From Minisyncoccota bacterium (lineage in GTDB: Bacteria; Patescibacteriota; Minisyncoccia; UBA6257; JAGOQP01), in NCBI GenBank assembly GCA_017991375.1, contig JAGOQP010000005.1, positions 8,348 to 72,347 on the forward strand: a stretch of DNA of 64,000 nt. Reading direction: 5' to 3'. The notes below the pieces were generated by a model. The model had not been told where the DNA came from, searched no databases, and saw nothing but the letters and a program-made list of their open reading frames with translations. Of the stretch, positions 38,911-59,118 are shown in pieces. The position numbers were made by a program, and so were the translations under genes. How positions within the stretch are numbered: the stretch's first letter is position 1; the number at the start of each line of letters is the position of its first letter.

Positions 38911-39001
38911 GCTCTTTTGTAGTATACATAAAAACGACGCATTGTTATATGCGTTACCGTATTAGTTGAAGAAAGGGCGCATATTTGCTATAGTTTTTTG
39001 T

Positions 39002-42000
39002 ATGCTACGAAATCTTAAATCGTTTACCCCTCCCGAACTAGAAGAAAAAGTGCTGGCACTCTGGAAAGAAAAGAATGTATTCAAAAAATCTATTACTCCC
39101 AAGAAAGGCGCGCGTGTTCGCCGATTTAATTTTTGGGAAGGACCGCCAACTGCCAACGGACGCCCCGGGATTCATCATGTGCTCGCGCGAGCGTTTAAAG
39201 ACGTGGTGTTGCGATTTAAAACGATGCAGGGCTTTATTGTTCCTCGAAAAGGGGGGTGGGATACGCACGGATTACCAGTTGAACTACAAGTAGAAAAGCA
39301 ACTAGGATTTACATCAAAAAAAGACATTGAAGCATTTGGTGTCGCTTCGTTTAACCAAAAGTGTAAAGAGTCGGTGTGGCTGTATAAGAGTGAGTGGGAG
39401 AAGCTCACTGAACGTATGGGGTATTGGTTGGATCTTGAACACCCATATGTGACGTATCACAAGAGCTATATGGAGTCGCTGTGGTGGATTATCAAACAGA
39501 TTTGGGACAAGGGGTTGTTGTATAAAGGACACAAAGTTGTTCCCTGGTGCACGCGTTGTGGCACGGCTCTTTCGTCTCACGAATTGGCACAAGGGTACAA
39601 AGAAGTAACTGATACATCGGTGTATGTAAAGTTTAAATTATTACCAAAACAAAAAATCGGTTCTTTTGTTACTGATGATAATACATTCATTCTTTCGTGG
39701 ACGACAACGCCGTGGACATTGCCAGGAAATGTTGCGCTCGCGGTTGGAGAAAAGATTCAATACAAAGCAGTGAAAGACCAAGAGAGTAAAGAAGTGTACA
39801 TCTTAGCATATGAATTAATAGAGAATGTGTTAAAGAAGGATGGATTGGAACCTATATCCGATATAAAAGGAAAGGATCTTGTCGGACTTTCGTACGAACC
39901 TCTTTTTAACGTGCCGTCACTCCATTCGGGCACATCATACCGCGTATATCCTGCTGATTTTGTGACGACAACCGATGGAACCGGTGTTGTGCACACCGCG
40001 GTTATGTACGGTGAAGATGATTACGTCTTAGGAAAAGAAGTTGAATTGCCACAAAAACACACCGTTGATGAGCAAGGATTTTTTACTAAGGAGGTAGTCG
40101 ATCTTGCGGGTCTCTACGCCAAAGATAAAAAAACAGAAGAAACTATTGTGCGTATTCTTTCGCAAAAAAATCTAATTCTTTCCACAGTTCCTCACACACA
40201 TGACTATCCTCATTGCTGGAGATGTGGCACGCCTCTTTTGTACTACGCTCGCTCATCGTGGTTTGTCGCGATGTCGAAATTACGCGCCCAACTTATTGAA
40301 TCAAACAAGGACACCATTTGGGTCCCCTCACATATTAAAGAAGGACGATTTGGTGAATGGCTTTCTGAAGTTAAGGATTGGAATTTTTCCCGTGAGCGGT
40401 ATTGGGGAACACCGCTTCCTATATGGGAATGTTCGTGCGGTCATCAAGAGGCGATAGGGAGTTATATGGAATTAAGTGCGCGTCTGCCACACTCTACTAA
40501 CCGCTACATTTTCGTGCGGCACGGAGAAGCGGGCCATAATATAAAACATATCATTAACTCAGATCCTAAAAATAAAGACGAATTTTCTCTCACTAAAAAA
40601 GGAGAACAACAGGTTGCAAAAACAGCGGCACAACTTAAAAAAACATTTAAGCGAGTAGACGCGCTCTATTCATCCGATTTTATTCGTGCCAGAGAAACGG
40701 CGAGTATTATCGCTCGCGCAGTGGGGGCATCTCACGTTCATTATGACCCGAGATTAAGAGAAATTTTTGTCGGTTCATTTGAAGGAGAGCATATGGATCG
40801 ATACCATCACTACTACGCATCACTCGAAGAAAAATTTATAAAACCAGCTCCCGAGGGAGAAAGTTTACAAGATGTTGCCGCTCGCGTGTGGGATTTTATC
40901 TCCGCGTGTGAAAAGAAGCATACAAATGAAACCATTGTGGTGGTAAGTCACGAGTATCCTATATGGATGCTTGAAGCAGTGCTTTCCGGTTGGAGTCAAG
41001 AGGAGGCGGTAGCCAAAAAAGAAAGCCGTGGCGATGATTTTATTGCTCTTGCCGAGTCGCGCGCGGTAGAGTGCGTCGCCGCGTCACGTGACGAGAAGGG
41101 TTTTGCTGATTATCACAAACCATACATTGACGCGGTTACTATTCCCTGTAAGAAATGCGGTGCTCATATGACGCGCGTGAAGGAGGTTGTAGATGTGTGG
41201 TTTGATTCTGGCGCAATGCCGTTTGCGCAATCGCATTATCCATTTGGGGCAACCAACAACCAACCCTTCGATCCCTCAGGATCTGCCATAAGCAGACAAC
41301 CAACAACCAACGAAAAAAAATAGGGAACGAAAGATAAAAAACAAAACATCGATGAGCTTGTCTATCCGGCGGAGTATATTTCCGAAGCCATTGATCAAAC
41401 ACGTGGGTGGTTCTACACCCTATTAGCGGTGGCAACGCTTTTGGGAAAGCCCACCCCGTATAAAAACATTATTTGTCTTGGACACATCAACGACAAAAAT
41501 GGACAAAAAATGTCCAAGTCAAAAGGAAATATTGTTGATCCATGGGGAGTGGCCAACAAATATGGCATGGATGCTATTCGGTGGTATTTGTACTCCGTCA
41601 ACAGCCCGGGAGATCCAAAGAACTTTGATGAGGACGAGGTGGCAAAAATTGTACGTAGCGTACTACTCACACTCTATAACTCGTTTGTATTTTTAAACGT
41701 GTATGGAAAAGACAAGTTGTTGCTTACCAGACAGCCGGCGGCAGTGGGGGCGCTTGATACATGGATCTACGCGCGCGTTGCCCAGGTAAGTGCCGCGGTA
41801 CGTGAACGTATGGACGCATACGACATTACCAAATCCACTCAACTCATAGAAGAATTTATCGACGATTTGTCGCGGTGGTATATTCGTCGTTCTCGCAAGC
41901 GATTTCAGCGCCCTCAAAACGCGGCCGAACATCAACGCGTGTCCGCGGTTCTTGCATTTGTGCTTTTTGAAACAAGTAAAATAATCGCTCCATTTCTTCC

Positions 42001-42676
42001 TTTTTTTGCCGAGGAGCTTTATCAGTCGCTTGTTCATATGTATCGATGCGATGCTAAGGACTCTGTTCATCTGGCGTCATGGCCGCAAAGTTCAAAATCA
42101 ACATTTAATAATGCTTTGTGCGAGCATATGACGCGAGTGCGTTCCATTGCTTCACTCGCATTAGCGTTGCGCGCTGAGCTTGGTATAAAAGTTCGTCAAC
42201 CGCTTGCCACTCTGACGGTTAAGGGAGATGTTTTTTCGGGAGTATTTGCACAAGAACTTCTGGATATTCTTAAAGAGGAGGTGAACGTAAAAAACGTGGT
42301 GTTCGATAAAAATCTTGATACCGATGTTATATTAGATACTGTTATTACGCCAGAACTTAGAGCAGAAGGATTGCTTCGCGAAATGACTCGTGTGGTACAA
42401 GATCTTCGTCAAGAGGCGGGGTATGTGCCGCAAGATACTATCGCGCTGTGGATCGACACCAATGGTTCGCTCGCGCCGCTTCTTCGTACGCATCAGGAAC
42501 GGTTTGCAAAAGACGTTGGAGCATACGTAGTTAATTTTGAAAAAAGCGCACTCTTTGACGCAGAAATAGAGACCAAGGTTGATGATCAGCGGGTGTGGGT
42601 GGGGGTCAAAAAAGAGACAAACAACTCACGACATACAACCAACAACAAGAAAGAAAAGAAGAATAAGAGGCATTAA
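39002..42676 (+). CDS. ileS: Isoleucine--tRNA ligase (type 2, Cys-knuckle type). One frame throughout, interrupted by a single in-frame TAG at 41321-41323, with an embedded histidine-phosphatase domain
   Basis: HIGH = PGIHHVLARAFKD. KMSKS = KMSKSKGN (41507-41530). The editing/CP1 and anticodon-binding regions are present. Across the TAG the frame reads ...[44 protein letters not shown]..., which is the conserved IleRS '..DQ.RGWF' block. A PGAM-like domain (RYIFVRHGEAGHN ... IVVVSHEYPIWMLEAVL) sits between WECSCG and PCKKCGAH. Confidence 0.85.
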
Positions 42677-42717: not shown

Positions 42718-42750
42718 AAAAAAGAAGGGATATCCTTCTCTTTTTGAATT
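42718..42750 (+). terminator. Terminator after ileS
   Basis: aaaaaaagaagggatatccttctcttttt. Confidence 0.65.
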
Positions 42751-42786: not shown

Positions 42787-43698
42787 TTATTTGAGGTATG
42801 CTTTTACGTTCGTGCTCATTTTCATAAAGATGTCATAAGTCCCCCGTATTTGAGAAAGGGCCTTGGTAACCAGCTCTTCTATGTGCTGGTTGATAAGAAC
42901 TTCCTCTGGTGGTCTTTTTTCAGTTGAGCTCGCGTCCAATTCTTTTTCATACGCAATAGCAAGGTCGGTAGAGAGTTTTTCTATGAATAACTTTGTCGAC
43001 GTACCTTGATGGGGAGTGTAAAGATTAAACACAATAGTAGTTGCCTGATCGTTATATTGGTGCGCGTTTTTTGCTGACACACTTGCTTGGTCGAACATTT
43101 TACGAAGCGACTGATTTTTAGTGAGCTTTTTTTCGTAGATGTTATTAATATCCACGCCAATTTTTTCTAGTCGTTGATCGGTGAGTTTTAAAATTGAATC
43201 GATTGACGCCGTGACAGCAATATTATTTGCTTGAGTAAGAAGAGGGTCTATAACAGTGGTTTTTATCGTCTCGATTTCCTTTGCGACGTTTTTTAGTTCA
43301 TCAAGGGTTGTGCTCTGCGTAAGCGTGTCTTGACTTTTTTCTAACGTGTCGGTGGCGTTTTCTAACGACTTCGTAAGCGTCTCTTTTATGGCGTCCCACT
43401 CATCCGAATCGGGAAGTATCGCGTCAGACACTCTCTTTTTCATTTCTAATACCTGTGTTTTTGATACATCGATAACGTCCGCGATGATACTTTTTTTCAA
43501 TTTCAACTCAAGCTCTGCTTTTTGCTCGGCAGAGAGCGTGGTGTCATCCTTGATAGTGGCAAGTTTTTGAAGATCGTCTTTGGTTGTTGAAAGTTTTTGT
43601 TCAATATCAGGTGACTGCGCCCACACCGGAACCGCGCTTGTAAGGAGCGCGATTGATATCATGCTTATAGCAAAATAATAAAATAATCTTTTTCTCAT
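42787..43698 (-). CDS. Secreted coiled-coil protein (third gene of sigma module 1; DUF5667-like?)
   Basis: Signal peptide + Ala-X-Ala site (VPVWAQS), then ~270 aa with a K/E/L/T-rich coiled-coil prediction. Confidence 0.35.
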   Translation of the reverse strand: MRKRLFYYFAISMISIALLTSAVPVWAQSPDIEQKLSTTKDDLQKLATIKDDTTLSAEQKAELELKLKKSIIADVIDVSKTQVLEMKKRVSDAILPDSDEWDAIKETLTKSLENATDTLEKSQDTLTQSTTLDELKNVAKEIETIKTTVIDPLLTQANNIAVTASIDSILKLTDQRLEKIGVDINNIYEKKLTKNQSLRKMFDQASVSAKNAHQYNDQATTIVFNLYTPHQGTSTKLFIEKLSTDLAIAYEKELDASSTEKRPPEEVLINQHIEELVTKALSQIRGTYDIFMKMSTNVKAYLK

Positions 43699-43702
43699 AC
43701 TA

Positions 43703-44227
43703 TTATTTACTTATCGTGTCTAAGATATTATTTATTTCTGTATTTATATCGTGTATTGCGCTGGGATCTTCTACTTGCGTTATTTTCTGCGCCTCAGTTC
43801 CAATAACTGTTTCGTTAAGATGATTGAGTTGTTGTGTTGATACATTATTAAGAGCGCTTGTTGTTTCACGCGCTGTTTTCTTAAAATGTTCGATTTGTGC
43901 CAATTGTATTGAAATCGTTTGATTAATCATATCTGCTTCGGCGACAATTTTCTTTTCGTTTAATCCTGGCAAGAGCAAAGGAGAGAGTTGTATGGTGGCA
44001 ACATATACACCCATTGCCAAAAGTCCAACCACCATAACCAAAGAGGCGGTATTTACCAAAGAGAGTACAAATGGCCGGCGCGCGATTCCGATAGGCAACG
44101 ATTCCACGGTTTCTCTTGTTGATTGTTTTGGCGCCGCGAGAATCAACCGTTTTGCCATACGGGAATAATCCGCGTCCGGGCGGATTGTTTTTAATTGGTT
44201 AAATACATTGCGTAAACGGTTATTCAT
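43703..44227 (-). CDS. Putative single-pass anti-sigma factor
   Basis: 174 aa with a cytoplasmic N-terminus, central TM (FVLSLVNTASLVMVVGLLAMGVYV) and an extracytoplasmic C-terminus. Immediately follows the ECF sigma gene with a 1-nt gap. Confidence 0.45.
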   Translation of the reverse strand: MNNRLRNVFNQLKTIRPDADYSRMAKRLILAAPKQSTRETVESLPIGIARRPFVLSLVNTASLVMVVGLLAMGVYVATIQLSPLLLPGLNEKKIVAEADMINQTISIQLAQIEHFKKTARETTSALNNVSTQQLNHLNETVIGTEAQKITQVEDPSAIHDINTEINNILDTISK

Positions 44228-44228
44228 A

Positions 44229-44777
44229 CTACTGTTCTATTGCTTTTTTTATCTTTTTTAGCGCCCTCATCTGTATAATGCGGACGGCTCCTTGTGTTTT
44301 TCCTATGGCTCGGGCTATTTCTTTATGTGATAACTCCTGTACGAATCGCATGAGGATAATATCCTGCTGTTCATGGGAGAGCATCTTAAGCGCTTCCATA
44401 ACGCGTTGCATATCTAATCGTGTCGCTGTTTCTTTTTCGATCCCCTCTGTCGCGCCAAGCGCTTCTTCGGCGATTGCCTCTATGTGTATTGGCGTGTGTT
44501 GTGTTCGGTAGTGATCGATAACTTTATTTCGCGCGATCCGGTAGAGCCAACTCGCAAAAGGGAGTCCATGGTCTATAAAATGTTCTATGGTTTGCCACGC
44601 GCTCAAAAATACTTGGTGGGTGAGATCCTCGGCGTCCTCACGACGGCTTACTTTGAGATAAATAAACCGATAGATGGCTGGCTGATACCGGTCATAGAGC
44701 AAGCCAAAAGCCGAGGACTCACCCTCCGTGGCTCTTTGTATCAGCTCTTTTTCATTATCGGTGTGTCCATCTACCAT
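44229..44777 (-). CDS. ECF-type RNA polymerase sigma-70 factor
   Basis: Region 2 (LLYDRYQPAIYRFIYLKVSRREDAEDLTHQVFLSAW) and region 4 HTH (LSHKEIARAIGKTQGAVRIIQMRALKKI). Confidence 0.8.
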   Translation of the reverse strand: MVDGHTDNEKELIQRATEGESSAFGLLYDRYQPAIYRFIYLKVSRREDAEDLTHQVFLSAWQTIEHFIDHGLPFASWLYRIARNKVIDHYRTQHTPIHIEAIAEEALGATEGIEKETATRLDMQRVMEALKMLSHEQQDIILMRFVQELSHKEIARAIGKTQGAVRIIQMRALKKIKKAIEQ

Positions 44778-44921
44778 ACTTTATAACGAATTATATTCCC
44801 TTTAGTTTCACTAACTCTCTTAAAAAAGGCCTTTTTTGGCCCGATACTCCTTATTTTAGCACATATTTTTCTATTAACCACCTTTTTGCCTTTTGAGATT
44901 GGCTCATCTATTATATGAGCA

Positions 44922-46175
44922 ATGAACAAGTGGGTAATCGGCTTTTGTGCTATCCTTCTCTTTTTTGTTGGAGGCGCTTTTTTGCTTTGGGTACATCGAA
45001 CGTCGTCTCTGTCGTTAGTAGACAATAAAGAAGCCCACACATCTCCCTCTCTGGATTCGACTTCAACCCCATTGGTAGTAGACGACTTTCAAAAAAATGT
45101 AACCGCATATTGCGGGCCAGATACGGTTCTTTTTGATCAAGTTGATACATATTACTGTCAGTCATCTCCCAAGTTGGATCGGTTTAGACTTTTTGAAATA
45201 AATTTAACCGACAATCGTATTCTTTTTTATGAAAATGGTATGTTGGGGCGCACATTCCCAGTTGCGTATCAGGCGCCCTATGGGGCGTGGTTTCAAACTC
45301 CAACGGGATATTTTACCGTGGGCGTCAAAAAACAGAAATTCCTATCGTCGATCGTCCCGGTTTTTATGGAAAACGCCGTTCAGATGTACGAAGATTTTTT
45401 TATCCATAATATTCCCTATTATCGGGATGGAACAAAAGTGACCAGTCAGTTTTCTGGGGGGTGTCTTCGTCTCGAGGACGATATTGCCAGGGATTTTTTT
45501 GACTTGGTACAGTCAGGAGATTCTGTGGTGTCGTACACCACACTTACTAACCTCACGGTACGTTCCGGTTTTGCTAGTCCGGTACAACAAAATATGTTTT
45601 GGATTCGCCAGCGGTTTAATTCTCCGCTCAAAGTGCAGTGGAAATGGTCTGCCGATAAGCGCGATGATTACATTCAACACGCGGGCCTTGATCTTGCTCC
45701 CATTCCTCACTCATTAGATCGGGGAGTATACAGCATCGGGTCGGGCGTTGTCGATCGTATTATTTATAATGGTCAGGATGACGCAGGATTGGGTAATACG
45801 ATTATTATTAAGCATTTGTTTGACGGCACGGCTGTTTATTCACTTTATGGGCACCTAGCTTCGATTTCCGAATCGCTTTCTGTTGGTCAGAGTATCGCGA
45901 CGGGAACATCTATTGGTATTGTCGGTAATACTGGGTACGGGTGTTCGTATTGGCATGTTGGTGCTGATGGGTGTGAGGTAATCGATGATCCAGATGTCCA
46001 TCTTCATTTTGAGTTAAAAAAATCACCAACACTTGAACCCCCAATAGATGCATCGTGCCCGATCGCTAACCATAAAGGAGATCGATGTATCGGATACACA
46101 CCAGAAAATCCAATGCAATTTGGTTATTATGATCCGTTCACCTTTCTGTTTGAAGATCAATCGTTTGGACTATGA
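44922..46175 (+). CDS. Membrane-anchored L,D-transpeptidase (YkuD) fused to an M23/LytM peptidase domain
   Basis: YkuD core: FYENGMLGRTFPVAYQAPYGAWFQTPTGYF...IHNIPYYRDGTKVTSQFSGGCLRL (catalytic His/Cys). C-terminal M23: HAGLDLA...GNTIIIKH...YGHLASI...GNTGYGCSYWHVGADGCEVIDDPDVHLHFEL. Confidence 0.7.
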   Translation: MNKWVIGFCAILLFFVGGAFLLWVHRTSSLSLVDNKEAHTSPSLDSTSTPLVVDDFQKNVTAYCGPDTVLFDQVDTYYCQSSPKLDRFRLFEINLTDNRILFYENGMLGRTFPVAYQAPYGAWFQTPTGYFTVGVKKQKFLSSIVPVFMENAVQMYEDFFIHNIPYYRDGTKVTSQFSGGCLRLEDDIARDFFDLVQSGDSVVSYTTLTNLTVRSGFASPVQQNMFWIRQRFNSPLKVQWKWSADKRDDYIQHAGLDLAPIPHSLDRGVYSIGSGVVDRIIYNGQDDAGLGNTIIIKHLFDGTAVYSLYGHLASISESLSVGQSIATGTSIGIVGNTGYGCSYWHVGADGCEVIDDPDVHLHFELKKSPTLEPPIDASCPIANHKGDRCIGYTPENPMQFGYYDPFTFLFEDQSFGL

Positions 46176-47086
46176 GGCGCATATTAATCAATGGCGTGCT
46201 TTTTATAGCGGTGTTTGTCATCGTCGGTTTTTTCTTTATTCATCACAATTCATTTTTCCCTCTCGTTAATAGAGAGCCTTTTTCTGACTATAGTTCATTC
46301 CCAAAACTGCGCGTTGCCACGCCGTACCCTTTTTTGGGTAATCTTATTTCTACTGTTGGGGGAGATCGCGTTGATATTATCTATATGCGTTGTGAAATTG
46401 ATGACGCTGATTGTGTAGGTACTTTTAAAAATACTATTGATCGGGACGATATTAAAGCTCTTTTTGTGCTTGGGCTCGCGGTGGATTCATGGGCGACGTC
46501 GCTTGACGACAAAATTGCAGTCGTCTCTTTTTTTGACGCGCTCAATTCGTCAACGGTTCACTCCGATTCTCAGAATGAACGCGTATTTCCAAAACGGGAT
46601 TCATATTTTTGGCTCGCTCCCTCTCGTGTACGGAAAATGACGGACTATATAGCTCGAACTTTGGCACAATTAGACGCGCTTCATCGGGAGCTTTATATCA
46701 GCAATGCGTATGACTATGGCGCTATGCTTGATATCGCGCGTCGCCAAGCGCGCGATGGAATCGCTCATAACAATCGCAAACCTCTTTTTGTGTACGGTGA
46801 TACCTGGGGCGATTTTCTAAGCGATATAGAAATTACTCCACGAGAAAATATTATTCCCGCTTCGTCTTCCAATGTATTTTTTGACAAAGTAGCCAAACAA
46901 ATCAGAGCGCATAATGGAGTCCTTTTAGTTGACACGACATTTCCCCTTTCTGATTTTGCTCTGCGTACGCGAGAGCATCCTATCGCCACGGCTCTTATCG
47001 ATCCTTTGGGGGATCTTTTTAATACTGATTATATTGATGTGTTCCGTTACAACGTTGCTCAGATTGCTCGTGTTGTGTTGCCATAA
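46172..47086 (+). CDS. Hypothetical membrane-anchored protein, possibly a degenerate TroA/ZnuA-like periplasmic binding fold
   Basis: N-terminal TM. Spacing of hydrophobic blocks resembles the ZnuA family, but the metal-binding His are not evident (DDADCVGTF where HEYEP would be). Confidence 0.25.
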   Translation: MRRILINGVLFIAVFVIVGFFFIHHNSFFPLVNREPFSDYSSFPKLRVATPYPFLGNLISTVGGDRVDIIYMRCEIDDADCVGTFKNTIDRDDIKALFVLGLAVDSWATSLDDKIAVVSFFDALNSSTVHSDSQNERVFPKRDSYFWLAPSRVRKMTDYIARTLAQLDALHRELYISNAYDYGAMLDIARRQARDGIAHNNRKPLFVYGDTWGDFLSDIEITPRENIIPASSSNVFFDKVAKQIRAHNGVLLVDTTFPLSDFALRTREHPIATALIDPLGDLFNTDYIDVFRYNVAQIARVVLP

Positions 47087-47184
47087 TACACAGACATTTT
47101 ATTGTTTGTGGGTAGGAGATTGGTGCGGTATACTCAATAGGTGTCTTGAGCGCGACACATTTTGTGTATGAGAACGTCTTTTCT

Positions 47185-47736
47185 ATGGAACGATTGAATC
47201 TCAAAAAACTTGTTACTCAATCGCGCGAGCTTGATCAGGAAGCATTTTCTATTTTGTATAAAGAATATATCACTCCGGTGTATCGGTTTTTATATATTCG
47301 CACGGGCAACCGAGATCTCGCGCAGGATCTTACCCACACTACTTTCGTTAAAGCATGGGAGGCGCGAAGTACCCTTATTCAATCTCATCGGGCATGGCTT
47401 ATCTCCATCGCGCGCAACACGCTCATCGATTATTGGCGGAAAAAAAAGGAGATTCCGCTTGATGACACGCATACACAATCGCTTTTGGATGAGAGTAGCT
47501 CATTAGAATATCAGCTTGATAAAGATAGACAACGCAAGGGTGTTTATGCCGCGTTATCGCAATTGAGTGATGAGCAACAAGAAATTATTATACTAAAGTT
47601 TATTTCGGAGCTTGATAACAAAACCATTGCTCGTGTTACTAAAAAATCACAAACAGCTATTCGCTCGTTGCAGTATCGCGCGCTTACTCAACTTCGTCGT
47701 GTGTTAAGAAAAGAAAATAATCAGGGTTACCAATAA
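47185..47736 (+). CDS. ECF-type RNA polymerase sigma-70 factor (paralog of 44229..44777)
   Basis: Region 2 ILYKEYITPVYRFLYIRTGNRDLAQDLTHTTFVKAW and region 4 LSDEQQEIIILKFISELDNKTIARVTKKSQTAIRSLQYRAL. Start at Met-14 of ORF 47146. Confidence 0.8.
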   Translation: MERLNLKKLVTQSRELDQEAFSILYKEYITPVYRFLYIRTGNRDLAQDLTHTTFVKAWEARSTLIQSHRAWLISIARNTLIDYWRKKKEIPLDDTHTQSLLDESSSLEYQLDKDRQRKGVYAALSQLSDEQQEIIILKFISELDNKTIARVTKKSQTAIRSLQYRALTQLRRVLRKENNQGYQ

Positions 47737-47737
47737 T

Positions 47738-48382
47738 ATGCGCCAAACAGTCACACGCCATACTAGCATAGAGCAGGCAGTGCAGGCCGCTGATCCACAT
47801 CAAGCACTAACGTTTTTAAAAGAGCTTTCCGATACTGAGCTGGCGGATGCGTTATCGGCGCTCAGCGCGCATGCCGATACCATAGAGCCCGATAAGGCGT
47901 TTGTACTCTCTTTGATTAGCGAACTGTCAAATCGGGGAGCGTCAACTAAATCTTCACTGAAACAATCAATAATACCCATGGGGAACACGCGTTTTCGGAT
48001 GCGGGTTAGACTTTTGTCTATGGTACGTTTTGTCGCGCCAGCTGTTTTAGTGATGCTTGTTGGCGTAGTGGTCCTTCTCCATCCATTTTCGAGAGAGCAG
48101 CAGCAGGTAGCCGAATTAAAAACGATTGGTAGTAGTGAAAAAACATTTTCTGAATCATCGTCTCACATTGCGCCCTATTTTACCGAAGAGAAAGCGCTTT
48201 CTGGTGTTGATCAGTCCATTGCTGATATTGCTCAACTTTCGGCACCAGTGGAACAGAATTCATTTGATGTTACAGCAGTCGATAAGGAGGCAGCGCAAGC
48301 TATGGCGAGTGCCGATCTTAACATATTGTGGGCAAGCGATTCTGCAATCAAGGAAATTGACATTGCCTTGAGTAATTTTTAA
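47738..48382 (+). CDS. Putative single-pass anti-sigma factor (module 2)
   Basis: Starts 2 nt after the sigma stop. Central TM VAPAVLVMLVGVVVLL. Confidence 0.45.
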   Translation: MRQTVTRHTSIEQAVQAADPHQALTFLKELSDTELADALSALSAHADTIEPDKAFVLSLISELSNRGASTKSSLKQSIIPMGNTRFRMRVRLLSMVRFVAPAVLVMLVGVVVLLHPFSREQQQVAELKTIGSSEKTFSESSSHIAPYFTEEKALSGVDQSIADIAQLSAPVEQNSFDVTAVDKEAAQAMASADLNILWASDSAIKEIDIALSNF

Positions 48383-48391
48383 AAGTGGTGT

Positions 48392-49252
48392 ATGTATACA
48401 TATATGGAAAAAGTTCGTTATGCTCGGGTGGTAGTGGCTCTATGCGCAGGTATTATTTGTGTCTTTTGCATTGTGCGCACTGCGGGGGCTCAAGAAAACG
48501 ATGATGATTTTGATCGTTCACTTAATCGTTTCCGTGTAGAGCAAGAAGAGTTACAGAAAATACGCGTGGAAAGCCAGAAAGAAAATCAATCAAAAGCACG
48601 CCAAAATCAAAATGATCGCGTTGTTGAAAAAAGTAGGGCCGTTTTAGAGCGAAGTATTGATGTATTGTTGGCACGCACCACCCAACTAAAAAAACGCGTT
48701 GACACACAAAAATCACTCTATGGGGATTTATTATCGCGTATTAATCAACTACTTCTTGCCGAACGTGAGACGCTTAATGATTTTCTGGAGCGCATCCGTG
48801 GGGCGTCAAACGCATCTGAATTACGCATGATTGCCCAAGACATCAAATCGTACCGTGACGAGCATGGCGATGATGTGGGGGAGGTTATGATCTTAGCTCA
48901 TCTGGCTCAGCTCAAAAATACGGTGCTCGCGCAGGCAACTGCCCGCGCCGATGCTCTGGGAGAACGCTTGGGCGATTTAAAAAATGACGGTCGTGATACA
49001 AAAGAATTAGAAGTGCTTTTGGGAACGGTTCAAGAAAAAATAACCGAAGTTCAAAAAAGAGTATCTGAAGTGGAAAGAAAAATAGCTATTGAAACCTTGA
49101 GTCGTCTTGATAAAACAGAAATTCAAAAAACACTTTCTGAGGCACAGAGTCTTATCAAAGATATATATGGGCTGTTTAGAACAATCGCGCTGCGAGGGTC
49201 GGTGTTGTTTGGGTCATCTACAACCGACGGAGTTTCCACATCTACTCAGTAG
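48392..49252 (+). CDS. Secreted coiled-coil protein (third gene of sigma module 2)
   Basis: Signal peptide (VVVALCAGIICVFCIVRTAGAQE) followed by E/K/Q/R-rich heptad-like sequence. Confidence 0.35.
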   Translation: MYTYMEKVRYARVVVALCAGIICVFCIVRTAGAQENDDDFDRSLNRFRVEQEELQKIRVESQKENQSKARQNQNDRVVEKSRAVLERSIDVLLARTTQLKKRVDTQKSLYGDLLSRINQLLLAERETLNDFLERIRGASNASELRMIAQDIKSYRDEHGDDVGEVMILAHLAQLKNTVLAQATARADALGERLGDLKNDGRDTKELEVLLGTVQEKITEVQKRVSEVERKIAIETLSRLDKTEIQKTLSEAQSLIKDIYGLFRTIALRGSVLFGSSTTDGVSTSTQ

Positions 49253-49318: not shown

Positions 49319-49391
49319 CCCCTCATAGCTCAATTGGTAGAGCTGCTCCCTCTTAAGGAGAAGGTTCTAGGTTCGAGTCCTAGTGGGGGGA
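49319..49391 (+). tRNA. tRNA-Lys (anticodon CUU)
   Basis: CCCCTCA-TA-GCTC-AATTGGTA-GAGC-T-GCTCC-CTCTTAA-GGAGA-AGGTT-CTAGG-TTCGAGT-CCTAG-TGGGGGG-A. Confidence 0.85.
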
Positions 49392-49495
49392 CTCTTCCTG
49401 TGTTTGTTTACAAAAATGTGGGAGGATGAGATCGGAGAGTGAATATCGGAAGGATATCAGATATCTGAAATCTGGCGTCTGACCTTTGAATAATT

Positions 49496-49568
49496 GCGGG
49501 TGTCGTATAGTGGCTTATTATACTTCCTTGCCAAGGAAGAGATGGGAGTTCGATTCTCCTCACCCGCT
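49496..49568 (+). tRNA. tRNA-Gly (anticodon GCC)
   Basis: GCGGGTG...CTTCC-TTGCCAA-GGAAG...GGGAG-TTCGATT-CTCCT-CACCCGC-T. Confidence 0.85.
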
Positions 49569-49656
49569 CGTTGAAATAACTCACAACCTACAACCTACAA
49601 CTTACAACAGGGACTTGTGTAGTTAGTCGTCAGTCGTCAGTTGTTAGTCATCTCTG

Positions 49657-49728
49657 TACCTCCGGAGGGATTTGAACCCCCAATAACAGGTTCGAAGCCT
49701 GTGGTGATATCCGTTTCACTACGGAGGC
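49657..49728 (-). tRNA. tRNA-Arg (anticodon UCG)
   Basis: Reverse complement: GCCTCCG-TA-GTGA-AACGGATA-TCAC-C-ACAGG-CTTCGAA-CCTGT-TATTG-GGGGG-TTCAAAT-CCCTC-CGGAGGT-A. Confidence 0.8.
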
Positions 49729-52889: not shown

Positions 52890-53315
52890 ATGAAGGCGAT
52901 ATTAAAACAAGTTACCGATTTTGATTCGACATCTTCTGACGAATCTCTGATCAAAAAAAATACTATAGTCAAAGAAGAAAAAATAACTTCTAACGATGGT
53001 GGCCAAGAGCGTGTTGAACTGATAAAAAAAGAAATTGAGGTTATCGAGCCGATATTTATTGAAGTGGATGATCGGACATATATCAAGTTCGATAAAAGTT
53101 CGCATCGTTCTGAAACTATTAATGTTGGCGAATTACGGGATCGCAAACAAGAAATTGAAACACGGCTTGCTCTTTTAAACGACTACTCCGATGAAAACTT
53201 ACTAGCATGGGCAAAGAGTAATTACCCAGGAGAAACGGGTGTCAAAGAAAGAGAGCAGTTAATAAGCGAGCTTAATACTATTAACGGTAATTTAAACGAA
53301 ATCGATGGCGATTAA
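52890..53315 (+). CDS. Small acidic hypothetical protein; overlaps the downstream giant ORF, suggesting translational coupling
   Basis: 141 aa, E/D/K-rich with no TM. Its stop overlaps the start of the 854-aa ORF by 11 nt. Confidence 0.35.
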   Translation: MKAILKQVTDFDSTSSDESLIKKNTIVKEEKITSNDGGQERVELIKKEIEVIEPIFIEVDDRTYIKFDKSSHRSETINVGELRDRKQEIETRLALLNDYSDENLLAWAKSNYPGETGVKEREQLISELNTINGNLNEIDGD

Positions 53316-55869
53316 GGTTGCTACATCATCGGGGAACTTCAACACCGCAGGTACGTGGTACACGGGAACAGAAACCAATACTGGAAGCACGGGCGGTACA
53401 ACTATGTCGACTACCCGTTACACGGCTGCTTTTACCGCCCCAAACACGACGAACACTTGTCAAGGGATAGTCGTATTAATGTATAGTTTGCCAACGTCGT
53501 CTCTTTCAAGTGTTACTGCGCAACTGCAAGAGTATAATGGGAGTACGTGGAATGATTGCGCCGGGGCGTCGATGACTCTTAACGAAAGCGACATTGACGC
53601 GTTCCGTTACTACACCGCTTCAACCACTGTTGCGTTGTTCTTGTATTTCAAGTTCGGAACGCCTTACACGTACACGACGACCTCTGCGGGTTATTATCGC
53701 GTAAAGCTTTCTCGCGCAGTGGCGAGCGCGTCAACCGCCGTGTATGCAAGCACGGTGACGAGTGAGGTGTGGGGGGTTATTGTTGATGACCGCACAGGCG
53801 CACCAGCTTCTTCAGATACGTGTTATGTGGTTGGCGTAACGGGGACGAAGACGACGGTGACGCTTGATGGTGCTTGCGCTTGCGGCCCAACGGTTGCGAC
53901 TGATGGTACTGATTATAGTACGATAACACCCTCTAACTCTGCTAACTGGGGGTTGTGCATAGGTTATCAAGGACAAGTCATTCCCGATTCAACGCAAAAC
54001 ACAACTCTGACAATGAATGGTTCTGCTCCGATTGTCGTTGCTGGAGGTCAGCTTAACTTCGGAACAGCTTCCGCGCCTTACACCGCTTCGTATACCGCGC
54101 AGATTGTTTATAACCCAAAAACGGCTTATTCGTGTGGTATTAGGGTTTATGGGTACAATGCTTCGTTAGAGCATTTCAGTATGGTTGGTCAGAGTAAGAC
54201 ATACAAGACCACCTATACTTCTGGCGCTGGAACGACCGCGAGTCCTTTAGTGGTCGCTGACGCGACTGGCTGGGCGGTTGGAGACCTCATCGGAGTGTCG
54301 GGCGATGCTTACAACAAACACGAGTTTAAGTACATAAAGACACTTGCGGGAACGTCTATCACCACTGCCGATAGTGTTGGTGGCGCAGAAAGCGGTTTTT
54401 CAAACACTCATTACGCGGCTGATTGGGTGCTGAACCTTTCTCGTAACGTGAAAATGGTTTCTTCGGGCGCGAACAAGTTTTGGTTCGGTTTTTTGAACAA
54501 TGTTTCTACGACTGCGGGGATTATGAAGTACGCAGAGTTTTCAGACATCGGAGGAAACGCGAGTTCACGGTTTACTTTTTTCATCGCGAACACTGCTCGC
54601 CACGCAATCAATATTGAAGGGTGCGCCATTTATGACATTCGCAACACGACTAATCTTACACAACCGTTGATTTACGGCTACGACACCTCTAACGCAAGCA
54701 ACACATACAAGAACAACGTGCATTTCGTGGCGGTGCTCGCAACAGTTCCTTATGTGAGTACGATGGCGCGGTTGTCGTTGAAGAACAACTCTGCCACGAA
54801 CGTTACAAACAATTATTTCGTCGGCGGTAGATACATTGGGTGTGACTTGTATGGCTATGGAGCGACGTACGATAATTTTCACGTCAGAAACGCGAGCGCA
54901 GGATATTCAAGCTCAACTTCTTACGCGGGAATAATCGCCAATAGTGGCGCTAACGTCACGCTACAAAACTGCACAGTCAATGCTTCGCGGAGTCACGCAC
55001 TAACCATAAACGCCAATGACAACAATCTTCTCGTGAAAAACTGTTCTTTTGGGACGGTGTATGCGAACAGCGCGCTTGGCGATGTTTCGCTCAATTCATT
55101 TGGTTCGTACAGCACGGCAGTTTTTGACTCGTGCGACTTCAGTAGCGCTGGCGGGTGGTATTTCTATGTAGCAGGATCCAATGGGTATATGTATAACTCT
55201 GCGGGTTCTCAGTATGCTTTCCAAAACTATGATAATTCAAGTGGCGACCACAGGGTGTATAAACCTGAGGGTGATATACAAAGAACTGCAGCGGGACTTA
55301 CCGATACAACGGTCAGAACGACTGGCGGGAGTTGTTTAAGATTTACTCCGATAGATACGACAAACAGATTAGAATGGTCGCAGGATGTTCCTGTCGGCGA
55401 CGTTACCGCGCAAACAATGACTGTCGGCGTGTGGTGCAAGATTAACAGCGCGACATATTACGCGGGAACGAATCAGATGCCTCGCCTTACAGTAGATTAT
55501 GATAACGGCACGACGGCTTACGCGGAGGCGGCAGAATCAACTGATTGGCAATTTCTATCTATCCCCGTTACCGCCACAACTTCATATCCTAAATGGGAAC
55601 TAACCGTCTCTGCATTGACTGATGCTACAAGCACAGATGCTTATGTTTACTTCACCGACTTCTCGGTGCTCTACCCTGCGGGTTATCAGCTGAAACTCGG
55701 AGAACTGGCTTACTTTGCAGATGGAGAGCCGTTAAAGCCGACGATAGCGACCAATTTGTCACCTGCTGATGTATGGGCGGTGAGCACGAGCGGGCTTACT
55801 GGTGATGGGACAATAGGAAGGTTTGTTACAAAGTTATTAACGGTGGCGAAGTTTTTGGGGCTAAAGTAA
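53305..55869 (+). CDS. Large S/T/N/G/Y-rich protein with a predicted right-handed beta-helix (tailspike / pectin-lyase-fold-like), no signal peptide
   Basis: 854 aa. Repetitive N-x-T/S and 'NVTLQNCTV / NLLVKNCSF' rungs typical of parallel beta-helices. N-terminus MAIKVATSSGNFNTAGTWYTG has no hydrophobic leader. Confidence 0.4.
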   Translation: MAIKVATSSGNFNTAGTWYTGTETNTGSTGGTTMSTTRYTAAFTAPNTTNTCQGIVVLMYSLPTSSLSSVTAQLQEYNGSTWNDCAGASMTLNESDIDAFRYYTASTTVALFLYFKFGTPYTYTTTSAGYYRVKLSRAVASASTAVYASTVTSEVWGVIVDDRTGAPASSDTCYVVGVTGTKTTVTLDGACACGPTVATDGTDYSTITPSNSANWGLCIGYQGQVIPDSTQNTTLTMNGSAPIVVAGGQLNFGTASAPYTASYTAQIVYNPKTAYSCGIRVYGYNASLEHFSMVGQSKTYKTTYTSGAGTTASPLVVADATGWAVGDLIGVSGDAYNKHEFKYIKTLAGTSITTADSVGGAESGFSNTHYAADWVLNLSRNVKMVSSGANKFWFGFLNNVSTTAGIMKYAEFSDIGGNASSRFTFFIANTARHAINIEGCAIYDIRNTTNLTQPLIYGYDTSNASNTYKNNVHFVAVLATVPYVSTMARLSLKNNSATNVTNNYFVGGRYIGCDLYGYGATYDNFHVRNASAGYSSSTSYAGIIANSGANVTLQNCTVNASRSHALTINANDNNLLVKNCSFGTVYANSALGDVSLNSFGSYSTAVFDSCDFSSAGGWYFYVAGSNGYMYNSAGSQYAFQNYDNSSGDHRVYKPEGDIQRTAAGLTDTTVRTTGGSCLRFTPIDTTNRLEWSQDVPVGDVTAQTMTVGVWCKINSATYYAGTNQMPRLTVDYDNGTTAYAEAAESTDWQFLSIPVTATTSYPKWELTVSALTDATSTDAYVYFTDFSVLYPAGYQLKLGELAYFADGEPLKPTIATNLSPADVWAVSTSGLTGDGTIGRFVTKLLTVAKFLGLK

Positions 55870-55875
55870 TATCAT

Positions 55876-56613
55876 ATGCGCGCGAGGCAATCTTCTGGAA
55901 AAAAAATTTCTACTTTTTATCCATACCTTGATGATATTCGTCAGCGTGTGTATGGATTAGCGGTTATCTTTCTCGCGCTCTTTACTATTGGATTTTTAAG
56001 TTCGGGGGTGTTATTGCGTGCCGTTGTATTATTCTTTACAATTCCTGGCGTTTCGATCGTGACTACATCTCCGTTTCAATTTGTTGATCTCGCGATGACC
56101 ATTGGCATTTTAATGGCGCTTATCGGATGTATTCCACTTTGTGTTTATCACCTATACGCTTTTTTAAAAGATTGTCTCCATACTCGTGAGCGATTCTTAT
56201 TCTTTTTGCTTCTTCCTGCAAGCGCGTTACTTTTTGCGCTTGGCTTTGCCTATGGATTTGGCGTTTTATACTACGCGTTGAGCGCTATAGCCGCTCTTAA
56301 TATTTCCCTAGGGACTCCTAACTTATGGGACATAGGACGATTTCTCTCTCAAATTGGGGTGAGCGCTGCCTTACTTGGACTTTTATTTCAATTTCCAATC
56401 ATACTCATTTTTTTGCTTCGCGGAGGCATTATGAGTCCTGATTTTCTTAAATCAAAATGGCGTCACGCGATTATGATTATTCTCATTTTTACCGCGCTCC
56501 TTCCTCCTACTGATGGACTCTCTCTTGTTATTATGGTTGTTCCGCTTATCGTATTATATGTATGTGTCTCTTTTATGGCGCCGTTTATTGTTCGTCGCCG
56601 GACGGCGGCGTAA
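55876..56613 (+). CDS. tatC: Twin-arginine translocase subunit TatC
   Basis: YLDDIRQRV..., TTSPFQFVDLAM...YHLYAFLKDCLHTRERFLFFLLLP, and GIMSPDFLKSKWRHAIMIILIFTALLPPTD parallel E. coli TatC blocks (HLIELRKRL; SPFFTP..ERR; GITSPEDLRKKRPY...LTPPD). Confidence 0.75.
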   Translation: MRARQSSGKKISTFYPYLDDIRQRVYGLAVIFLALFTIGFLSSGVLLRAVVLFFTIPGVSIVTTSPFQFVDLAMTIGILMALIGCIPLCVYHLYAFLKDCLHTRERFLFFLLLPASALLFALGFAYGFGVLYYALSAIAALNISLGTPNLWDIGRFLSQIGVSAALLGLLFQFPIILIFLLRGGIMSPDFLKSKWRHAIMIILIFTALLPPTDGLSLVIMVVPLIVLYVCVSFMAPFIVRRRTAA

Positions 56614-56629
56614 TACTCTGGTGGTGATT

Positions 56630-58213
56630 ATGTGTATAAAGTATACTATTACTATGCGCGCACGTTTTGGAATTTTTCTTTTTGTATGTTGTGGGGCGTT
56701 TTGGTGTATTGGAACGTCCTCGTATGCGTATGAAACCGTTCTTCCAGGAGGCGCTATTACCATAGGCGAGTTTGTCTACGATGATGATTTTCAAGCAACC
56801 ACAACCCCTTGCACGGTGTCAGTATATAATCCTTCGGGTGGGTTGGCAGTAAATACAGCAATGACTGCCGAAAGTAATGGGTGGCACTATTATGTGTTTA
56901 CCGGCACAACGGCAGAGGGTACATGGCCGACATTAATTCAATGTGGATCAACAACGACGGGGGATCTTATTAAAATGGATAAAACATTCTATGTGGGGTA
57001 CGCTCCTGTTGTGACGTCAACTATTCCTGATCTTGTAGCGCAAACGGTGTGGGGGTATGCCACGCGCACGCTTTCATCCGGAGCATCTATTGTAAGTGAT
57101 ATTTGGGGAGGAGCTGGACGATCGCTCACGACGTTTGGAACGCTTGTGTCTGACGTATGGAGCGATGTTTCTGTTCCCATCAGGCGACTAAGCGACAACT
57201 TATTTAGCGGTGGCGGATCTATTGCGACAGAACAACAACTTCAAACCGCAACTAGTACATTGCAACAGGGAATCACCTCAATCGGAGCGACACTCAACGC
57301 TCGTTGGGATGTTTCTTTGTCAAACGTTGAGCGGGTTCTTGTTGGAAAAACATATCGCGCAAAAGTGAGCGTGCTTATGGCGTCCTCTACGCCGGCTGAC
57401 TCATACGCGCTTCCTCTGGTAACATTGTACGATGCTGACCGAAATGCCGTGGTATCAGCAGTTGCAATGACGAAACTTTCGGCGGGCGTGTATGAATACA
57501 CCTATAGCGTTCCAGGATCAGCCGCCGAGGGCCTGTGGGAAACAGTAGTAACAACGGAAGTGGAAGCGGGAAAAACATTAACAACAAACGACTATTGGAG
57601 TGTTGAGGGTTCTCCCGCGCAAGTTATTATTAATGGAGTGACCGATACCACTATTCCCGATATTGTTGCCAATGTGACCATTACCAATGAAGGACTGACC
57701 GGATATGAGTATCACTATGAATGGTGTGTTGTGGCAGAAAGTTCAAATACTTGTGGTGATGGAGATGATATGTATTACGCGTCCGCGTCAAAATACATAA
57801 ATGCGGGAGAAGATTGGAACACTAATTTAACCGCTGTCGTTTCTTCAGTCGGATCGTATCTATTTAAATTAGTTGTGTATTATGGCACTGAACAATCGGG
57901 CTCGTCTAGAACATTTACTGCTCAAACAGCATCCGCGCCTCCTGGAGGGGGTGGAGGAGCCGGGGGTGGGGGTGGCACGCAACAAACAACTGCACCAACT
58001 CCGTCGGGGACACCACTGGTTAACACTCAATGTCGTGGCGCGGATTTTAATTTGGATTCAAAGGTAAACTCAATTGATTTTTCAATTTTACTCGCGTTTT
58101 GGAAGACAGCGTCGCCATTCAAAAACCCTTGCGTGGATATTAATACGGATTTGAGAGTTGATTCAGTCGATTTTTCTATACTTATGTATCAGTGGGGTAA
58201 AAAGGGAATATAA
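56630..58213 (+). CDS. Secreted protein with a Gly-rich linker and a C-terminal type-I dockerin domain
   Basis: Signal peptide (RFGIFLFVCCGAFWCIGTSSYA). Linker APPGGGGGAGGGGGTQQTTAPTPSG. Duplicated Ca-binding segments ADFNLDSKVNSIDFSILLAFW and DINTDLRVDSVDFSILMYQW. Confidence 0.6.
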   Translation: MCIKYTITMRARFGIFLFVCCGAFWCIGTSSYAYETVLPGGAITIGEFVYDDDFQATTTPCTVSVYNPSGGLAVNTAMTAESNGWHYYVFTGTTAEGTWPTLIQCGSTTTGDLIKMDKTFYVGYAPVVTSTIPDLVAQTVWGYATRTLSSGASIVSDIWGGAGRSLTTFGTLVSDVWSDVSVPIRRLSDNLFSGGGSIATEQQLQTATSTLQQGITSIGATLNARWDVSLSNVERVLVGKTYRAKVSVLMASSTPADSYALPLVTLYDADRNAVVSAVAMTKLSAGVYEYTYSVPGSAAEGLWETVVTTEVEAGKTLTTNDYWSVEGSPAQVIINGVTDTTIPDIVANVTITNEGLTGYEYHYEWCVVAESSNTCGDGDDMYYASASKYINAGEDWNTNLTAVVSSVGSYLFKLVVYYGTEQSGSSRTFTAQTASAPPGGGGGAGGGGGTQQTTAPTPSGTPLVNTQCRGADFNLDSKVNSIDFSILLAFWKTASPFKNPCVDINTDLRVDSVDFSILMYQWGKKGI

Positions 58214-58224
58214 TATTCATAACT

Positions 58225-59118
58225 ATGAAGCGCTATTACGTTGTATATCTGTTCGTGTTGGTTATTGCAGTGTTTCTTATGCGTGGCGGCGAGGTTTTTG
58301 CCGCGACTGTTTATCCAGTTATTGATTCTTCGTCCGTGCGCGTTGGTGATACGGCGGTCATTACTCTTTTTCTGGATACCGAAGGAGAGACCATAAACAC
58401 CGTTGATGGGTCGTTTTCTCTTGGGGCCAATACGCAACTACTCGCGGTAAAAGATTTTTCTTTCGCGGGAAGCGGATTTTCATATTGGGTTCATCATCCT
58501 TCTCTCTCGTTAGAGAGCGGAATCATTTCTTTTGTTGGGGGCGCCCCAGGAGGAGTATCTGGCTCGTCCGTCGTGCTTTTTAAAACGATTGTGTTAGCCA
58601 AAAAGACGGGGACCATATCCATTACTCCAGGAGCTATTAACGCCTATCTTAATGATGGGAAAGGGACGTTGATTTCTGTTCGCACAAAAACACTTTCAGT
58701 TACGGCGGAAAAACAAACGGGAGAACCAAATGATTCATGGGCGCGAGTGCTTGCGTCCGACACGCGTCCTCCTTCTGATCTGCGTGTTGAATTTGGAAAA
58801 AGTACTGAACTTTTTGAAGGAAGATGGTTTGCATCAATACGCGCGGCCGATAGCGAATCGGGGATAGACCGATATGAGGTCATGGAAAACGGTCGTTCCG
58901 TTGTCCTGGCAACTCCTTTATATGAACTCTCCAACCAATCAGGAAATGCTCGTCTTAACGTCGTTGTCTACGATAAAGCTGGTAATAAAAGCGAGATAAC
59001 AATCAGTCAAGACAAGGGATGGCCATGGTGGTATGTTGTTGTCATCGTCGTTGTTATCGTTTGTGCGTTATATATTATTCGTAGATTTATACGAAGAAAA
59101 AAAATTATTCAATGGTAA
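58225..59118 (+). CDS. Membrane-anchored cohesin-domain protein 1
   Basis: Signal peptide, then a ~140-aa segment with cohesin-like beta-sandwich pattern (VGDTAVITLFLDT...INTVDGSFSL...ISFVGGAPGGVSGSSVVLFKTIVLAKKTGTISI...NAYLNDGKGTLI). C-terminal TM WPWWYVVVIVVVIVCALYII + RRFIRRKK. Confidence 0.5.
   Translation: MKRYYVVYLFVLVIAVFLMRGGEVFAATVYPVIDSSSVRVGDTAVITLFLDTEGETINTVDGSFSLGANTQLLAVKDFSFAGSGFSYWVHHPSLSLESGIISFVGGAPGGVSGSSVVLFKTIVLAKKTGTISITPGAINAYLNDGKGTLISVRTKTLSVTAEKQTGEPNDSWARVLASDTRPPSDLRVEFGKSTELFEGRWFASIRAADSESGIDRYEVMENGRSVVLATPLYELSNQSGNARLNVVVYDKAGNKSEITISQDKGWPWWYVVVIVVVIVCALYIIRRFIRRKKIIQW

Follow-up and report, generated by a model that had tools for sequence, protein, structure and literature searches.

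The DNA analysed here is a 64-kb window of contig JAGOQP010000005.1 from a Minisyncoccota bacterium (assembly GCA_017991375.1); "the window" means this whole stretch, and positions refer to it unless another locus is named. It contains a block of eight genes in mirror arrangement (Table 1), in which two units, each encoding a sigma factor of the extracytoplasmic function (ECF) type, a membrane protein and a secreted helical protein, flank a gene for an L,D-transpeptidase fused to an M23 metallopeptidase (Ldt-M23) and a gene for a ZnuA-like protein. We call the minus-strand unit triad A (sigA, antiA, thirdA) and the plus-strand unit triad B (sigB, antiB, thirdB). This layout had been proposed from the letters of the DNA (the original prediction), and it was borne out: all eight open reading frames (ORFs) are found at the claimed coordinates and strands, and Pfam and NCBIfam confirm the two ECF sigma factors, the YkuD plus Peptidase_M23 fusion and the ZnuA fold.

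Each triad has a three-gene operon structure. The ORF coordinates leave intergenic gaps of only 1-9 nt inside both triads, and the gap between the sigma gene and the second gene is 1 nt in each, the antiA start lying 1 nt past the sigA stop codon. The sigA and ldt-M23 genes are divergent and 144 bp apart. The hairpin that separates thirdA from the convergent isoleucyl-tRNA synthetase (IleRS) gene is likely a bidirectional terminator closing the triad A operon.

Table 1. Features of the block in the window, and truncated antiB homologues at four related loci (coordinates of those loci)
Feature	Position	Strand	Description
Hairpin with flanking T/A runs	42723..42739		Between convergent IleRS and thirdA
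thirdA	42787..43698	-	303 aa, exported all-helical protein, signal peptide cleavage VWA/QS, unannotated family
antiA	43703..44227	-	174 aa, single-pass membrane protein, putative anti-sigma
sigA	44229..44777	-	182 aa, ECF sigma factor
PsigA	44784..44810	-	ECF-type promoter motif
GC hairpin and T-run	44827..44842	-	Just upstream of the PsigA -35 element
ldt-M23 promoter	44886..44914	+	Sigma-70-like
ldt-M23	44922..46175	+	417 aa, membrane-anchored YkuD L,D-transpeptidase fused to M23 metallopeptidase
ZnuA-like	46172..47086	+	304 aa, membrane-anchored ZnuA-fold protein
PsigB	47152..47179	+	ECF-type promoter motif
sigB	47185..47736	+	183 aa, ECF sigma factor
antiB	47738..48382	+	214 aa, single-pass membrane protein, putative anti-sigma
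thirdB	48392..49252	+	286 aa, exported all-helical protein, signal peptide AGA/QE, remote thirdA paralogue
Short antiB, L009	11360-11656		90-100 aa
Short antiB, L010	11256-11555		90-100 aa
Short antiB, L011	11251-11553		90-100 aa
Short antiB, L013	11254-11526		90-100 aa

Sigma factors and their promoters

Only sigma regions 2 and 4 are recognised by Pfam in SigA and SigB (for SigA, Sigma70_r2 at E = 1.3e-18 and r4 at 3.4e-13), and the ECF superfamily model TIGR02937, with a cut-off of 42.9 bits, gives 103.7 bits for SigA and 82.6 bits for SigB. By domain content and model score, both are ECF (group 4) sigma-70 factors. The best-scoring NCBIfam model for both is TIGR02952, which describes the BldN family, at 147.5 bits (SigA) and 115.7 bits (SigB); both scores are below its 206.45-bit cut-off, and membership of that family was rejected.

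The two triads had been described as paralogous gene for gene. This stands for the sigma factors, which share 36% identity in a pairwise BLASTP alignment (E = 1e-36), and for the third genes at the level of profiles, but not for the putative anti-sigmas, whose similarity is not significant. Across genomes SigA and SigB form separate clades, with a mean sigma identity of 55% within SigA, 45% within SigB and 32% between them. Because these two clades extend across genomes and the block recurs in more than 15 genomes and metagenome contigs of Paceibacteria/Parcubacteria, the duplication is, as judged from the sequences, an ancient rather than a recent one.

Promoters with AAC and CGT elements, a co-transcribed anti-sigma and positive autoregulation are classical hallmarks of ECF systems (PMC8103513). 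An autoregulated promoter of this kind was looked for upstream of each triad, as the original prediction had proposed, and a conserved ECF-type motif, different for the two, stands in front of each sigma gene. PsigA in the window consists of TGAAAC (44810-44805), a 16-nt spacer and CGTTA (44788-44784), ending 6 nt before the sigA ATG; in the aligned loci the motif reads TG(A/T)AAC-N16-CGTT(A/T) with the ATG 3-6 nt on, and it is present at 15 loci at least. PsigB consists of GACAC (47154-47158), a 16-nt spacer and CGTCT (47175-47179), ending 5 nt before the ATG at 47185, and about ten sequence-distinct loci give (A/G)nCAC-N16-CGT(C/T)n with the ATG 2-6 nt on. Its -10 element has the canonical CGT, and its -35 element is a CAC variant of AAC. 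All 15 occurrences of the strict sigA motif in 402 kb of related loci lie directly upstream of sigA, and a matrix scan of the window scores the PsigA and PsigB sites at 30.0 and 28.4, with the next-best site at 14.2. No further regulon members were found by motif scans of the window and the 402 kb of loci.

The motifs imply two separate self-activating operons, and since the promoters end 2-6 nt before the sigma ATG, their mRNA would carry little or no leader. As PsigA and PsigB differ in both the -35 and the -10 element, the two circuits should work without cross-talk. Expression with no or almost no leader is plausible in this genome because no Shine-Dalgarno-like motif is found at -16 to -6 before any of the 47 window ORFs of at least 150 aa, which suggests that translation is Shine-Dalgarno-independent and often proceeds with little or no leader. 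Many genes in the window have a -10-like hexamer 10-14 nt before their ATG. A TTG at 47146 was considered as the sigB start but rejected in favour of the ATG at 47185, since it lies 5' of the conserved promoter. Two related loci (L027 5863-5887 and L028 3285-3309) carry a good PsigA motif in which the usual ATG 3 nt downstream is replaced (…CGTTATATAGAGTAGAAG).

Two further elements lie close to these promoters. A hairpin and T-run like that at 44827-44842 is present in 13 of 19 loci, its sequence varying and its structure kept; besides the window, it is seen in L001, L004, L006, L007, L011, L013, L020, L023, L026, L029, L032 and L033. It resembles an intrinsic terminator, yet there is no obvious upstream gene on the sigA strand. 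At triad B, an inverted repeat (GACAC-N4-6-GTGTC) shares bases with the PsigB -35 element in the window (47141-47168, plus strand) and at two other loci (L004 ~3862-3887 and L005 ~2614-2639); it may serve another regulator as an operator, or arise by chance from the -35 sequence.

Membrane proteins encoded by the second genes

The single-pass membrane nature of both second-gene products can be read straight from their sequences. AntiA has about 50 cytoplasmic residues, one transmembrane helix and a helical outer domain, and an alignment of 16 orthologues (A6) shows a conserved cytoplasmic I-x-P-x-x-[DE]-F-S and a conserved SPLFLPGLN in the outer domain beside the membrane. AntiB has about 90 cytoplasmic residues and one transmembrane helix (alignment A5), and its outer domain opens with a conserved PFxxExxQVxELK. 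The two proteins show no significant similarity to each other (BLASTP E = 85; profile probability 5-6%), nor do their N-domains or outer domains when compared alone; only a short cytoplasmic I-x-P-x-x-x-F/Y aligns between them, and their paralogy is unproven at the sequence level. Membership of the class I anti-sigmas, defined by an anti-sigma domain of the zf-HC2 or RskA type at the N terminus, was tried and rejected, as neither the Pfam nor the PDB profile searches retrieved an anti-sigma.

The second gene lies between the sigma gene and the third gene in 13 of 13 metagenomic loci, and also in all five distant family members with enough upstream sequence on their contigs. At four loci (L009, L010, L011 and L013) sigB and the cytoplasmic domain of AntiB are both missing; there are no mixed cases, and a search of these loci for sigB pseudogene remnants found none. 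What is left there is a short AntiB homologue (Table 1) that keeps the transmembrane helix and the conserved membrane-adjacent motif and has lost the cytoplasmic domain and the C-terminal tail, followed by thirdB, which is retained. Upstream of these two genes lie a hairpin resembling a terminator and TTGAAA-N17-TATACT, a strong promoter of the sigma-70 type giving a leader of some 35 nt. The joint loss of sigB and the AntiB cytoplasmic domain supports a role for that domain in binding sigma and a putative anti-sigma function for the second gene, and the retention of the membrane and outer stub together with thirdB suggests that these two parts may act together outside the membrane.

An exported helical family encoded by the third genes

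Both third genes encode proteins with AxA-type signal peptides, as read from their sequences. The AlphaFold2 model of ThirdA (pLDDT 91.8, pTM 0.82) has seven long helices after the signal peptide, and that of ThirdB (pLDDT 79, pTM 0.65) is likewise all-helical; the first five helices have the same order and lengths in the two models, including a central helix of 58 residues. The original prediction of secreted coiled-coil proteins therefore needs amending: the products are secreted and helical, but they look like multi-helix bundles in these models and not like classical two-stranded coiled coils.

A BLASTP comparison of ThirdA with ThirdB is unconvincing alone (E = 0.038), but hhalign aligns them over 201 collinear columns with a probability of 96.2% (E = 2.4e-9), a ThirdB hidden Markov model (HMM) matches the ThirdA of the window at E = 3.5e-9, and many intermediate family members match both profiles. 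By these profile comparisons the two are shown to be remote homologues. Word-indexed homologue searches with ThirdA, ThirdB and a 36-sequence profile gave one to three proteins each; it was an exhaustive HMM search that revealed the family, which comprises 438 clusters (50% identity) at E <= 1e-3. Of six distant members sampled, five again stand third in their unit, after a sigma factor and a small membrane protein, and the contig of the sixth is too short to show the sigma gene. These distant triads are usually followed by a convergent HU gene and have no ldt.

The role of the third gene in such modules had been called undescribed, and the gene itself proved to be so. Neither the third genes nor 36 family members have a Pfam or NCBIfam match, a PDB profile search found no relative of known structure, and public records name the proteins "hypothetical protein". 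Foldseek searches of the PDB with the two models retrieved only generic noise from helical bundles and G-protein-coupled receptors (E > 0.05, TM-score ~0.2), with no match below E = 0.1 for ThirdA. One Wolfebacteria ThirdB orthologue (UniRef100_A0A0G1CBG2) is named "DUF5667 domain-containing protein" in UniRef. DUF5667 is not listed among the Pfam matches of ThirdA (E <= 1) or ThirdB (E <= 10), is not among the best 25 of the 43 Pfam families matched by that orthologue at E <= 10, and is not mentioned in the literature searched; the name brings no functional information. Homology to RseB or MucB was also considered and rejected, since neither the third genes nor the 36 family members match MucB_RseB and the fold is all-helical, so that the resemblance of the third genes to RseB is functional and positional only.

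Conservation of the block

The architecture of the triads was checked across about 35 loci, assembled from a scan of a genome collection with Ldt-M23, a scan of metagenomes with ThirdA and exact look-ups of family members, and it is conserved in related genomes. All named loci belong to metagenome-assembled genomes of Paceibacterota/Parcubacteria, Wolfebacteria among them. The complete mirror block is found in the window and in L001, L004, L006, L007, L025, L026, L031 and L037, and because the arrangement recurs in this way it is not due to chance. Other loci hold parts of it: L020-L022 have both triads and the ZnuA-like gene but no ldt; L005 has both triads on one side; L023, L027 and L029 have no triad B, the ZnuA-like gene being followed by the gene for the CCA-adding enzyme; and L032 has no triad B and other genes in that place. 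In L027 and L028 the triad or triads are kept without ldt.

L004 retains all eight genes between different flanks (adenylosuccinate lyase and HU), and the ZnuA-like gene adjoins sigA in every locus sampled through ThirdA that has enough flanking sequence.

The Ldt-M23 and ZnuA-like genes

Both domains of Ldt-M23 score above their Pfam cut-offs (YkuD, PF03734, 39.4 bits against 23.4; M23, PF01551, 51.6 bits against 28.7), and their motifs are intact. H162 and S178-G-G-C181-x-R183 (SGGC181LR) of the YkuD domain, and the zinc-binding H253xxxD257 and H360-L-H362 of the M23 domain, are invariant in an alignment of orthologues (A2). The sigma-70-like promoter of the gene, TTGCCT-N17-TATTAT, ends 7 nt before the ATG, and the same element is present in L001. 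Between the ldt stop codon and the start of the ZnuA-like gene there is a 4-nt overlap.

The ZnuA-like protein matches PF01297 over residues 49-300 of 304 (58.1 bits, cut-off 29; E = 1.2e-15). Compared with Synechocystis ZnuA (1pq4/2ov1), however, DPHIW is changed to DSYFW and FHPSW to YGDTW, placing Tyr and Gly at the positions of ligand histidines, and no His was seen by inspection in the region of the first ligand. No ABC-3 or ABC_tran genes are found within the block or in the scanned flanking ORFs. On this residue evidence, the protein is a repurposed fold and not a zinc-binding protein, and we rejected the idea that it delivers zinc to the M23 domain because the canonical metal-ligand histidines are missing. 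Two of the distant triads adjoin metal transport genes (L035 3153-3917 and L036 157-1629), encoding a Zip permease or an ABC_tran protein with an ABC-3 permease, and there may be a historical link of the triad to Zn/Mn uptake.

The original prediction suggested that the two circuits control, or respond to, a peptidoglycan-remodelling enzyme; control of the enzyme was not borne out. No relaxed AAC/CAC-N16-17-CGT motif stands on the ldt strand in any of 19 sequences that precede ldt, a search that also took in the sequences before the ZnuA-like gene, gene 2 and gene 3 brought up three isolated relaxed matches in all, and triads exist without ldt. Given the empty ldt upstream regions and the sigma-70-like promoter in the window, direct control of ldt-M23 by either sigma factor is not supported by the sequences. 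The neighbourhood of ldt may be conserved for a shared function at the envelope or simply through synteny.

Other features of the window

Directly 3' of triad B, at 49319-49728, are tRNA genes for Lys-CTT, Gly-GCC and Arg-TCG, the last on the opposite strand, and an Rfam scan of the region found nothing beyond these three. They are followed by genes for the CCA-adding enzyme and glutamate racemase (MurI), and the same cca-murI neighbours lie 3' of the block in the Wolfebacteria locus L037. On the other side, the IleRS gene (38966-42676, plus strand) contains a histidine-phosphatase (His_Phos_1) insertion and a single in-frame TAG at 41321-41323, right after a run of eight A's; its L001 orthologue is an intact ORF of 1207 aa, and the TAG may come from misassembly of the homopolymer run or may truly interrupt the gene. 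The window also has large ORFs at 53305-55869 and 56513-60842 that are scarcely annotated or not at all. One product, of 854 aa, is without a Pfam hit; others, encoded beside a TatC gene, are predicted to be surface proteins and carry Dockerin_1, MG2 and Big_13 fragments.

Discussion

We think it rather probable that the block holds two ancient, self-contained ECF sigma operons, each with its own anti-sigma and a new kind of exported partner. Each operon would activate itself from its own ECF-type promoter. The short cytoplasmic N-domain of the second-gene product would hold sigma inactive, making this protein an anti-sigma of a type missed by current models, and the exported third protein would work outside the membrane with the outer domain of the second. 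The third protein may be the main product of the circuit and is probably also a modulator of anti-sigma stability, as RseB is for RseA; on this view, perturbing the envelope would free sigma and raise the output of all three genes. The ldt-M23 gene and its degenerate ZnuA-like neighbour would form a separately transcribed, translationally coupled pair under a sigma-70-type promoter, conserved beside triad A in Paceibacteria but not a detectable target of either sigma factor.

The order of an ECF sigma factor, a single-pass membrane anti-sigma and an exported protein in one operon is also that of rpoE-rseA-rseB(-rseC) in Escherichia coli, where the exported protein binds the anti-sigma at the latter's outer domain and governs its proteolysis. 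That the third protein plays an RseB-like part, alike in logic and unrelated in sequence and fold, is an analogy to which we give slightly less than an even chance. Genes 2 and 3 have no sequence relationship to their E. coli counterparts, and both the interaction and the proteolysis are putative here. The third protein is modelled as an all-helical bundle, whereas RseB is not known to be all-helical, and the host is a monoderm-like member of the candidate phyla radiation (CPR), to which the outer-membrane-protein and lipopolysaccharide signals of E. coli do not apply. The promoter of the E. coli rpoE operon is autoregulated (PMC8103513).

PsigA, in front of its own sigma and putative anti-sigma genes, is in essence the classical AAC/CGT ECF promoter and matches the TGAAAC-N16-CGT(A/C) promoters of the sigW-rsiW, sigX-rsiX and sigM-yhdL-yhdK operons of Bacillus subtilis. 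The sigM operon has three genes and includes a second membrane component. The triads differ from these operons in that their putative anti-sigmas have no class I anti-sigma domain, their third gene encodes a large exported helical protein and not a small membrane protein, their promoters abut the start codon and leave essentially no leader, and PsigB has CAC in place of AAC at -35. A third likeness is to BldN and RsbN, since the BldN model is the best-scoring one for SigA and SigB, though they fall below the family cut-off. BldN is controlled by an unconventional membrane anti-sigma, RsbN, with a binding domain that is not of class I, and it drives the production of secreted surface proteins.

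Several points weigh against the reading of two self-contained operons. No Pfam match at E <= 1 was obtained for 16 AntiA and 9 AntiB orthologues, which thus have no recognised anti-sigma domain, and PDB profile searches with the second genes retrieved no anti-sigma. The -10-like element lies 2-6 nt from the ATG, closer than the standard ECF geometry for the start of transcription, and the sigma start codon, or else the promoter, may have been placed a little wrongly. The motif scans covered about 64 kb of the host genome and about 400 kb of related loci, so that regulon members may lie elsewhere, and a weak ECF site for ldt could have escaped recognition. The putative interaction of the third protein with the outer domain of the second is drawn from gene order and co-retention, and the adjacency of ldt and the triads may in part be conserved synteny (IleRS ... 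CCA enzyme ... MurI) in small genomes.

This last point can be taken further, and it is a serious possibility, if one we lean against, that the mirror arrangement reflects no joint function and that triad A, triad B and the ldt/ZnuA-like pair are separate units which only conserved synteny in small, slowly rearranging genomes has kept side by side. Triad B comes and goes independently, being missing from four loci, in three of which the CCA enzyme gene directly follows the ZnuA-like gene; both triads stand on one side in L005, and the flanking housekeeping genes are syntenic too. Synteny sits less easily with L004, which retains the eight-gene block despite its different flanks, or with the constant place of the ZnuA-like gene beside sigA.

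The third protein might also be purely the output of the circuit, a structural or protective protein of the envelope with no regulatory role, the second protein being its membrane partner as well as the anti-sigma. We consider this rather unlikely as a full account, although no sigma target was found beyond the triad itself in the window and 402 kb, the short AntiB/ThirdB pair persists without sigma under a housekeeping-type promoter in four genomes, and the family is large and always exported. Neither fold nor motif hints at an enzymatic or structural function, and the present data do not separate such an effector from a co-regulator; both may hold together.

It is improbable, in our estimate, that the second protein is only a membrane anchor or chaperone for the third, with the sigma factors regulated otherwise. 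The anti-sigma domain that goes undetected by Pfam and PDB profiles, the mere 50 or so cytoplasmic residues of AntiA and the lack of demonstrable homology between AntiA and AntiB would all fit such a role, but the gene follows sigma strictly, with 1-nt gaps or overlaps, its cytoplasmic motif is conserved across distant triads, and four genomes lack both sigB and the AntiB cytoplasmic domain, with no mixed cases. Direct transcriptional control of Ldt-M23 by both sigma circuits has very little left in its favour: ldt-M23 and the ZnuA-like gene do adjoin triad A in most Paceibacteria loci, and ldt and sigA diverge from a shared 144 bp, but the relaxed motif is absent from all 19 ldt upstream regions, a sigma-70-like element stands before ldt in the window, L020-L022 and L027/L028 have their triad or triads without ldt, and the distant triads lack it altogether.

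Weighed against these alternatives, the two self-contained sigma operons represent a genuine and conserved variation on the ECF sigma/anti-sigma theme in CPR bacteria that had not been described before, distinguished by its new exported partner family and its clear promoter motifs. In the literature searched we found no paper on ECF sigma systems of CPR/Patescibacteria, the few keyword co-occurrences being unrelated. The result also corrects the attractive but unsupported idea that these circuits regulate the neighbouring peptidoglycan enzyme.

CPR/Patescibacteria have tiny genomes with very few regulators, and the analysis yields for them two predicted orthogonal sigma/promoter pairs with clear motifs, which would enable regulon prediction in uncultured Paceibacteria, together with a sizeable unannotated exported family of 438 clusters that is locked to these operons. 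The genomes without sigB serve as a natural experiment linking the membrane protein's cytoplasmic domain to sigma, and if the membrane-protein/helical-bundle pair works there without a sigma factor, the envelope function may have come first and sigma control may have been added or removed later. More tentatively, the triad may be a signalling unit found throughout Paceibacteria, and perhaps more widely in CPR, which would combine a new class of extracytoplasmic partner for ECF anti-sigmas, an unclassified sigma-binding segment of about 40-90 residues and transcription from ECF promoters beginning on the start codon or only a few nucleotides from it. Should the third protein indeed be such a partner for the anti-sigma outside the cytoplasm, it would represent a novel way for bacteria without an outer membrane to sense the state of their envelope.

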